A stretch of 4,350 nt of DNA, taken from IMG/VR virus record IMGVR_UViG_2706794668_000012. One strand, written 5' to 3'. The DNA comes from a virus. Taxonomy: Duplodnaviria; Heunggongvirae; Uroviricota; Caudoviricetes. This document shows positions 1,436-1,479 of the stretch, piece by piece (position 1 is the stretch's first letter; every line of letters begins with the position of its first letter). Below the pieces are notes generated by a model, which saw only the letters and a list, made by a program, of their open reading frames with translations, was not told where the DNA came from and did no database searches. The position numbers were made by a program, and so were the translations under genes.

Positions 1436-1479
1436 TTTTTGTTCGACGCCGGAACGTTCCCGAAAGCATTTACAAAAAA
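1436..1479 (+). promoter_or_regulatory. Bipartite motif copy 1: TTTTTGTTCGAC (1436-1447) - N21 - TTTACAAAAAA (1469-1479); candidate promoter or protein-binding site
   Basis: Both half-motifs recur with identical 21-nt spacing at 3987-4030 while the spacer sequence differs. Written as TTTTTGT...ACAAAAA the halves are inverted relative to each other. Confidence 0.4.

Follow-up and report, generated by a model that had tools for sequence, protein, structure and literature searches.

We analysed a stretch of 4,350 nucleotides (hereafter the window) of the virus record IMGVR_UViG_2706794668_000012, in which a bipartite motif, TTTTTGTTCGAC-N21-TTTACAAAAAA, occurs twice and exactly, at 1436-1479 and at 3987-4030. 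[quoted passage not shown] The first of these predicted sites, cos A, extends from about 1262 to 1479, and the second, cos B, from a run of N to 4030. The homologies given below indicate that the satellite has copied its cos sites from helper phages, so that we are dealing with a known kind of feature and not with a new class of promoter or of element. The place of the motif in a cos module that phages share, its conservation and its spacing are the established part of this account; as to its role, the motif most likely helps the terminase to assemble on the DNA.

Allowing up to three mismatches, we saw no third copy of the motif in the window, and two matches never arose in 200 dinucleotide-preserving shuffles of it. 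An earlier note, made from the letters of the window, had rightly described the two halves as mutually inverted (over TTTTTGT/ACAAAAA), the spacers as unrelated (4 of the 21 positions match between the copies) and both copies as lying in non-coding DNA upstream of plus-strand open reading frames (ORFs); the first copy, however, is about 240 nt away from its ORF (ATG at 1719). It had taken the pattern for a protein-recognition site or an unusual promoter rather than a duplicated segment. This last opposition has to be abandoned, as the motif is the 3' end of a duplicated module of about 220 bp. The duplication had been missed because a run of 266 N (3721-3986, plus strand), which ends one base before copy 2, concealed the DNA preceding that copy. 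The idea of a protein-recognition site stands in so far as conserved halves, an unrelated spacer and a fixed spacing fit a constrained protein-DNA feature, but this feature belongs to duplicated cos sites.

The duplication is visible in the related island of E. coli RM10410 (L001), where nothing is masked: each copy of the motif stands at the end of one unit of a diverged direct repeat (about 220 bp), and the two units begin directly after the stop codons of the single-stranded DNA-binding protein (SSB) gene and of the capsid gene. Each repeat is made, in this order, of a terminator, cosQ, cosN, CATCAY repeats, a consensus for the integration host factor (IHF) and the motif. Its G-rich block reads ..GGTCCTCCTGGTGGGG..GGCCTG..CACGGGGCGGGCGG..CGCGGAAAAAGGCGCATTTTT.TGATTTT, and is followed by an A/T-rich stretch and then by the motif. 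Five contigs which are identical to the window at both flanks of the N run (L089, L110, L112, L374 and L375) carry 233 nt in place of the 266 N of the window, and within these 233 nt lie the end of the capsid gene, the terminator and most of cos B, including the G-rich block. Two of them, L089 and L374, show a single mismatch with the window over 1-3720; the equivalent stretch in L001 is 12780-12971. In the near-identical contigs and in L001, a diverged duplicate of about 190 nt thus precedes both copies. By homology, the N run of the window would contain the 3' end of the capsid gene, a terminator, cosQ, cosN, an R3-like element (TCATCATCATCAT), an IHF-like site and an inverted GATGATGAT.

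We aligned copy A of the module, taken from the window, with copy B rebuilt from a near-identical contig. The identity is 77% over the terminator and the G-rich block (cosQ and cosN), 49% over the next 65 nt and 19% over the spacer, and it reaches 100% in half 1 and again in half 2. Cos A starts with an intrinsic terminator read from the sequence (GCCGGAGCAATCCGGC and T6; 1262-1290, plus strand), located after the SSB gene; an equivalent hairpin with T6 opens the second module in L001 and L374. Then come the cosQ-like and cosN-like block (GGTACTCCTGGTGGGGGTGGCCTGTCCACGGGGCGGGCGGTTCGCGGAAAAAGG; 1291-1345, plus strand), recognised by alignment with lambda and by identity with phages, and a proximal cosB-like region (1346-1435, plus strand), delimited from the map of features relative to cosN. 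This region holds a T6GA box at about 1350, an R3-like CATCAC repeat at about 1370-1380, an IHF consensus TATCAATAACTTA on the minus strand at about 1385-1397 and an element at the R2 position, GTGTCGAAT, at about 1419-1427. Half 1 (1436-1447, plus strand, about +115 from cosN) is composed of a T-tract and of an element at the R1 position; the spacer (1448-1468, plus strand) holds a perfect palindrome, GGAACGTTCC, at 1451-1460; half 2 (1469-1479, plus strand) lies at about +150 from cosN. The second copy of the motif (3987-4030, plus strand) is made in the same way of half 1, a spacer ATCTTTTAGCGTGACAGATTC and half 2.

When aligned with the real sequence of lambda, the G-rich block matches cosQ and cosN: GGGTCCTTTCCGGTGATCCGACAGGTTACGGGGCGGCGACCTCGCGG. 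A lambda-type cosN with a cosQ upstream is therefore present, and the block is kept in cos A, in cos B and in the phages called below types I, II and III. The stretch 1284-1444 of the window matches the lambdoid phages 1720a-02, CP-1639, phi458, mEp460, PhiR40_1 and others with 74-91% identity, and the shorter stretch 1284-1393 is all that is matched by Shiga toxin (Stx)-converting phages (about 81%). In the phages the match sits between the lysis genes and terS, the small terminase gene (as annotated in 1720a-02, phi458 and mEp460), or at the end of a linear record. One such linear record, LR595868, ends with ...GGTGGGGTGGCCTG (...GGCCTG) and starts with CCACGGGGCGGG..., so that both termini of the record, however they came to be set, fall within the G-rich block. 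In the prophage locus L085, the site is followed by the small terminase (TerS), by a gpA-type large terminase (TerL) with ATPase and nuclease parts, and by a lambda portal.

We numbered the positions of all cos members mapped from the G equivalent to the left end of lambda. CATCAC or CATCAT repeats are found at +44 to +60 in every one of them, and the exact IHF consensus follows on the minus strand at +61 to +75, with one mismatch in cos B and in type III phages. An inverted ATGATG is located at about +98 in cos B and in type III phages; T6GTTC lies at +113 to +116, then CATCAC, GACATC or GTCATC at +121 to +125; ACAAAAA lies at about +151 in satellites and in type III phages. The layout is alike in phage types I-III and in satellites of Kluyvera, and across this cos family TTTTTTGTTC is found 114-118 nt from CACGGGGCGG (the range allowed being 95-125). 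In lambda, the elements of cosB come in the order R3-I1-R2-R1, with R2 inverted (PMC9026076). The predicted cosB elements of the present sites (CATCAY repeats, inverted ATGATG, exact IHF consensus) stand at lambda-like positions, as sequence matches, and we infer by analogy which individual box is to be assigned to which R element. Given the homology of the cos modules, the likeliest binding partner of the motif would be the helper terminase (TerS, with IHF nearby), and not a transcription factor or the two small proteins encoded by the satellite.

Scanning viral contigs with the pattern TTTTTGTTC-N24-TTTACAAAA gave 133 instances of the motif, 112 of which lie 115-119 nt past CACGGGGCGG. The instances form three spacer classes, A, B and C. 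Behind class A (..CCGGAACGTTCCCGAAA.CA), at about 205 nt, come the extended reading frame of a 64-aa ORF and then the capsid gene; class B (GACATCTTTTAGCGTGACAGATTC) has a 93-aa ORF 38 nt on; class C (GACATCTTTATATGGCGGCATTTC and variants) has a 158-aa protein about 42 nt on. This protein belongs to DUF1441/PHROG 141 (small terminase), and a gpA-family TerL and a lambda-family portal come next. From these neighbours we concluded that class C is the cos of real lambdoid prophages, which we named type III. A type III cos with its terS is present in 571 of 5426 complete E. coli genomes, and many of the top matches are O157:H7 and similar strains. The flanks of the motif in cos B, TTTTTGTTCGACATCTTT ... 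TTCTTTACAAAAAA, are common to the cos of type III phages. In an alignment of the class consensus sequences, the columns common to A, B and C are the cosQ-cosN block, the T5/6G box, the CATCA core, part of the IHF site, GTT..TTTTTGTTC and TTTAC.AAAAA.

The sets used for conservation were chosen by the neighbouring proteins (similarity to TerS, or the 64-aa protein) and not by the motif. The phages with a type III TerS all carry both halves, about 52 nt before terS. Among the satellites picked by the 64-aa protein, cos A is found in 36 of 36, and cos B in all 26 whose locus reaches the 93-aa ORF; the distance between the halves is equal in all 36 cos A and 26 cos B. Counted as distinct sequences, those with a constant distance from half 1 to half 2 are 23 of 23 for cos A, 15 of 15 for cos B and 30 of 32 for type III phages. 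Other distances do vary: 114-118 from cosN to half 1, 6-8 for the A-run, 51-55 from half 2 to the ATG. The earlier note had proposed a search of related elements for the motif pair, and the 21-nt spacing is indeed conserved in satellites and in helper-type phages. In the 31 distinct type III sequences which have both halves at N21, no column of the halves varies, it being understood that the extraction pattern fixes 14 of their 23 positions (9 of the 12 in half 1); in the same sequences 6 of the 21 spacer columns and 19 of the 40 left-flank columns vary. Exact identity of the 12-mer is confined to the present sub-lineage: in most relatives copy 1 reads TTTTTGTTCATC, hence the first half which is generally shared is TTTTTGTTC. 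In phages with a type II TerS (similar to 1720a-02), TTTTTGTTCATC is followed by TTTACATAA, which stands nearer by 10 bp, or one turn of the helix; this nearer position is taken by TTTGCC in type I phages (mEp460, phi458).

We propose that during growth of the helper its TerS, a winged helix-turn-helix (HTH) protein of the DUF1441 family, would build together with IHF a bent nucleoprotein complex, which would place the gpA-type TerL on cosN, the site of nicking. The two halves of the motif would be contacts or bend elements of this complex, located on the same helical face; as they would have to share that face, their sequence and their spacing would be kept while the spacer drifts. Packaging would then run rightward from each cos. 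The spacer and the neighbouring DNA diverge but the halves keep their sequence and their spacing, which argues for a structural constraint of this kind; so does the difference of one helical turn between types II and III.

Several points weigh against this account. Half 2 is absent in type I phages (mEp460, phi458), in type IV phages and in the satellites of Kluyvera, which means that it is not universally required in the cos family. The sequences within each class are closely related, so that conservation within a class weighs little. For the predicted positions of the nicks we relied on the analogy with lambda and on a single linear record. The boxes similar to R elements are the CATCAY repeats, and the halves do not look like them; accordingly it may not be TerS that binds the halves, or they may serve as nothing more than bendable A/T tracts. 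Finally, the two cos sites are 2.55 kb apart, and the account does not explain why the satellite keeps both.

The two sites are not of the same subtype. The TerS proteins of types II and III (loci L294-L373) are nearly identical from about residue 66 on, and it is their N-terminal, DNA-binding half which differs. The swap of this N-terminal module tracks the cosB subtype. Over the stretch from cosQ to half 1, the nearest phages are those of type II for cos A (90.7% identity to 1720a-02) and those of type III for cos B; the spacer of cos A is 10 bp longer than that of the type II phage cos (1720a-02), and this gives it the type III spacing. It is conceivable, although we hold it for rather doubtful, that the satellite possesses two functionally different cos sites, each matched to the terminase of a different helper, both having been given the same distal half 2 at N21. 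Fitting half 2 at N21 to cos A would then have needed the insertion of 10 bp. If this were true, the bipartite motif would count as a distal element of cosB not described before, and by having dual cos sites one satellite could make use of two lineages of helpers.

Could the motif be a passive remnant, its halves being kept through nothing more than the recent copying of cos modules, without any function of their own, or as patches of homology at a mosaic boundary? The near identity of the sequences within each class and the lack of half 2 in some members of the family are what one would expect from such a remnant, and the module by which the TerS of types II and III differ starts just downstream of the motif, which places a recombination boundary here. 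We nevertheless judge this explanation unlikely, since the halves of cos A and cos B have stayed fully identical, and in register, between a spacer and a preceding stretch that have diverged to the extent given above. Moreover, every satellite sampled keeps the motif at both of its cos copies, and the 10-bp difference in phasing between types II and III argues for a constraint on structure.

We find it quite improbable that the motif is an activator-dependent or otherwise unusual promoter, or an operator, on the inverted halves of which a regulator from the helper or the satellite would bind and switch on the genes downstream (the small ORF and the capsid gene after copy 1, the 93-aa ORF after copy 2, terS in phages). 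It is true that TTTACA has five of the six letters of the -35 consensus, that a strong terminator precedes and a plus-strand gene follows each copy, and that inverted halves at a fixed spacing are typical of dimeric regulators. However, the scan of the window gave no plus-strand site of the sigma-70 type, in agreement with the earlier note, which had set the motif apart from sigma-70 spacing; no -10-like hexamer lies 16-18 nt past TTTACA in any of the three contexts (classes A, B and C), and no pair of -35 and -10 boxes 16-18 bp apart is formed. In phages the motif sits within the late operon, about 50 nt before terS. Furthermore, it keeps a fixed distance to cosN (115-119 nt) but not to the start codon, for which the values are 38, about 42 and about 240 nt. 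A better candidate for a promoter and operator, or for a leader hairpin, of the 64-aa ORF and the capsid operon would be the perfect inverted repeat at 1616-1645, AAAAATCAGA-N10-TCTGATTTTT, which encloses CATAAT (1631-1636) and is kept in relatives.

A further explanation, to which we give very little credit, is that the motif is the site of a packaging or redirection factor encoded by the satellite (the 93-aa protein or a small ribbon-helix-helix-like protein), acting in the manner of Rpp, rather than of the helper TerS alone. The 93-aa gene (PHROG 1561) does adjoin cos in several PICI lineages with different cos types, and relatives from Kluyvera carry directly after cos an ORF made of the DNA-binding domain of TerS and nothing else. 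But the identical motif, with the identical spacing, is found in helper-type phages, where terS, terL and the portal gene follow directly, and the phage contigs examined showed no homologue of these satellite genes. Searches of protein families and of solved structures with the 64-aa and 93-aa proteins matched only PHROGs of unknown function, with neither a DNA-binding family nor a solved relative, and the single-sequence AlphaFold models of the small satellite proteins are of low confidence (pLDDT 67-68).

A hairpin or cruciform formed in DNA or in a transcript by pairing of TTTTTTGT with ACAAAAAA is hardly credible, for, despite up to 8 complementary bases in copy 1, the folding energies cannot be told apart from those of shuffles (z = -1.5 and -0.4 for the plus strand, -1.6 and -0.6 for the minus strand), the plus-strand fold of copy 2 leaves the halves unpaired, and its minimum-energy fold on the minus strand, which does pair them, has -3.9 kcal/mol, no better than shuffles. 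A recombination site, similar to integron attC or of a cassette, had been suggested by the direct repeats; we dropped it given the clear homology with cos.

We now turn to the satellite itself. Chromosomal islands of E. coli match the window with about 91% identity. The island of L001, of about 11 kb, encodes in this order an integrase, an HTH protein, a BRO-N protein, an Icd-like protein, a primase, a small ORF, SSB, a small ORF, the protease/capsid fusion and two small ORFs. Such an order of genes is that described for Gram-negative PICIs, many of which carry a capsid gene (PMC10111431). The features by which PICIs and helper-embedded PICIs (HE-PICIs) are recognised are found here: a unidirectional island of about 11 kb with int, an alpA-type HTH gene, a primase/rep gene and an iteron origin, devoid of terminase and tail genes; a cos common to the satellite and to a lambdoid helper; and, for some members, a location in a late gene of the helper.

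In the window, the C-terminal end of a D5/primase-type protein (1-282) is followed, just past the gene, by an array (300-540) in which the iteron GGTGAACAG(T/G) occurs nine times, in either orientation; the replication origin of a PICI is expected here, and we take the array for its candidate. An 81-aa ORF lies between the iterons and the SSB gene (828-1250). After cos A come the 64-aa ORF (1719-1913, plus strand) and, from 1910 on the plus strand, the gene of a ClpP-type prohead protease fused to a major capsid protein. The 93-aa ORF (4069-4350, plus strand; PHROG 1561, unknown function) starts 38 nt past cos B and occupies the slot held by terS in phages. The fusion gene is disrupted at about 2973 by a deletion of 13 nt with respect to L001 (GCTTGCAGGCTGG is missing), which splits it into an ORF at 1910-3055 and another from 3019 onwards. 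The near-identical viral contigs differ from the window only at base 1580 over 1-3720 and must therefore share this deletion. On the minus strand, two overlapping terminator-like hairpins with T-runs are found at 1517-1498 and 1500-1481, the T-run of the second being half 2 of the motif read on the opposite strand, and a promoter-like TTGACT-17-CACAAT lies at 1597-1569. This promoter and these hairpins could yield a minus-strand RNA of about 70 nt between cos A and the capsid operon. An Rfam scan of the window and of L001 gave no family above threshold.

A striking sequence pattern is explained here by ordinary biology: a satellite carries copies of the DNA-packaging signal of its helpers, and current concepts of packaging are unchanged by this result. 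What the analysis provides is a map, at the level of the sequence, of the cos of common lambdoid prophages of E. coli with a DUF1441-type TerS, for the cosB of which we found no published dissection. It also provides a signature (cosN block, about 115 nt, T6GTTC, N24, TTTACA) for pairing satellites with their likely helpers, and an example, open to testing, of a satellite whose two cos sites differ in subtype. The literature on "two cos sites" in satellites and on DUF1441 gave us nothing specific to the motif.

Among known systems, the late promoters of P2/P4 have in common with the motif an inverted TGT/ACA in non-coding DNA of a satellite. As the earlier note had stated, the motif is not the Ogr/Delta site TGT-N12-ACA, which is located about 55 bp upstream of the start: TGT and ACA are here 29 nt apart and not 12, no promoter follows and the context is that of a cos. 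Scanning genome contigs with the protease/capsid protein returned mostly distant prophages, the only informative ones being two satellites of Kluyvera, L007 (Kluyvera ascorbata, 6940-7318) and L008. They have a single cos, located after the capsid gene, in which half 1 is ten bp farther from cosN, and next to it a 62-aa ORF whose match with DUF1441 small terminases is confined to their N-terminal DNA-binding part, and which is a candidate for an Rpp-like protein. In other PICI lineages (L376-L453), homologues of the 93-aa protein adjoin a lambda-type cos in the opposite orientation (..CGCGAGGTCGCCGCCCCGTAAC..). The 93-aa gene, being found beside different cos types, is thus linked to cos across these types, which suggests a role related to packaging.

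The likeness with HE-PICIs (PMC10111431) is close: the order of genes is the same (int, alpA-type HTH, primase, origin, capsid gene), relatives have their insertion site in gene A/terL, a late gene of the helper, and a cos common to PICI and helper is noted there. The same satellite, with an integrase 99% identical to that of L001, is inserted in terL of a type III prophage in L113, L146 and L156; in L001 itself, the integrase is located between pgrR and mppA. In L113, read in the orientation of the motif, terL nt 1-899 (at 1108-2006) and 888-2013 (at 12425-13550) flank the satellite with an overlap of 12 bp, which by its layout is the helper-embedded arrangement of that paper. The "doubled motif" of the HE-PICI paper (TGTATTGC) is an element of the attP arm unrelated to the present motif, and the cosB-side motif is not described there. 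The same paper reports another PICI which shares a cos region of 258 bp with its helper.

Two cos sites per PICI are already documented for EcCICFT073, in which both are functional, with cosQ and cosN resembling those of the helper, and are packaged by the helper terminase; its cosB is unlike that of the helper and requires the satellite protein Rpp (PMC6092414, PMC6739421; Fillol-Salom 2018, 2019). The present satellite is likewise a PICI with two cos sites. It differs in that cos B matches the cosB of helper-type phages through the motif, and in that its two sites flank the protease/capsid gene and resemble two cos subtypes of phages. No homologue of Rpp and no TerS-like ORF was found among the ORFs of the window, and an Rpp-dependent cosB of the EcCICFT073 kind is not recognised in it.

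Lastly, the module to which the present sites belong has in common with the cos of lambda a homologous cosQ-cosN and, in phages, a place between lysis genes and terS, where it goes with a TerL of the gpA family and a portal of the lambda family. As sequence matches, an IHF consensus is flanked by repeated elements, and inverted ones come next, 100-160 bp from cosN. The present sites differ from the cos of lambda by their TerS, which is of the DUF1441 family and not Nu1, by their candidate R elements, which are CATCAY repeats, and by the conserved pair T6GTTC ... TTTACAAAAAA, for which lambda has no described counterpart. The predicted cohesive end would be GGGCGGGCGG... here, compared to GGGCGGCGACCT in lambda.
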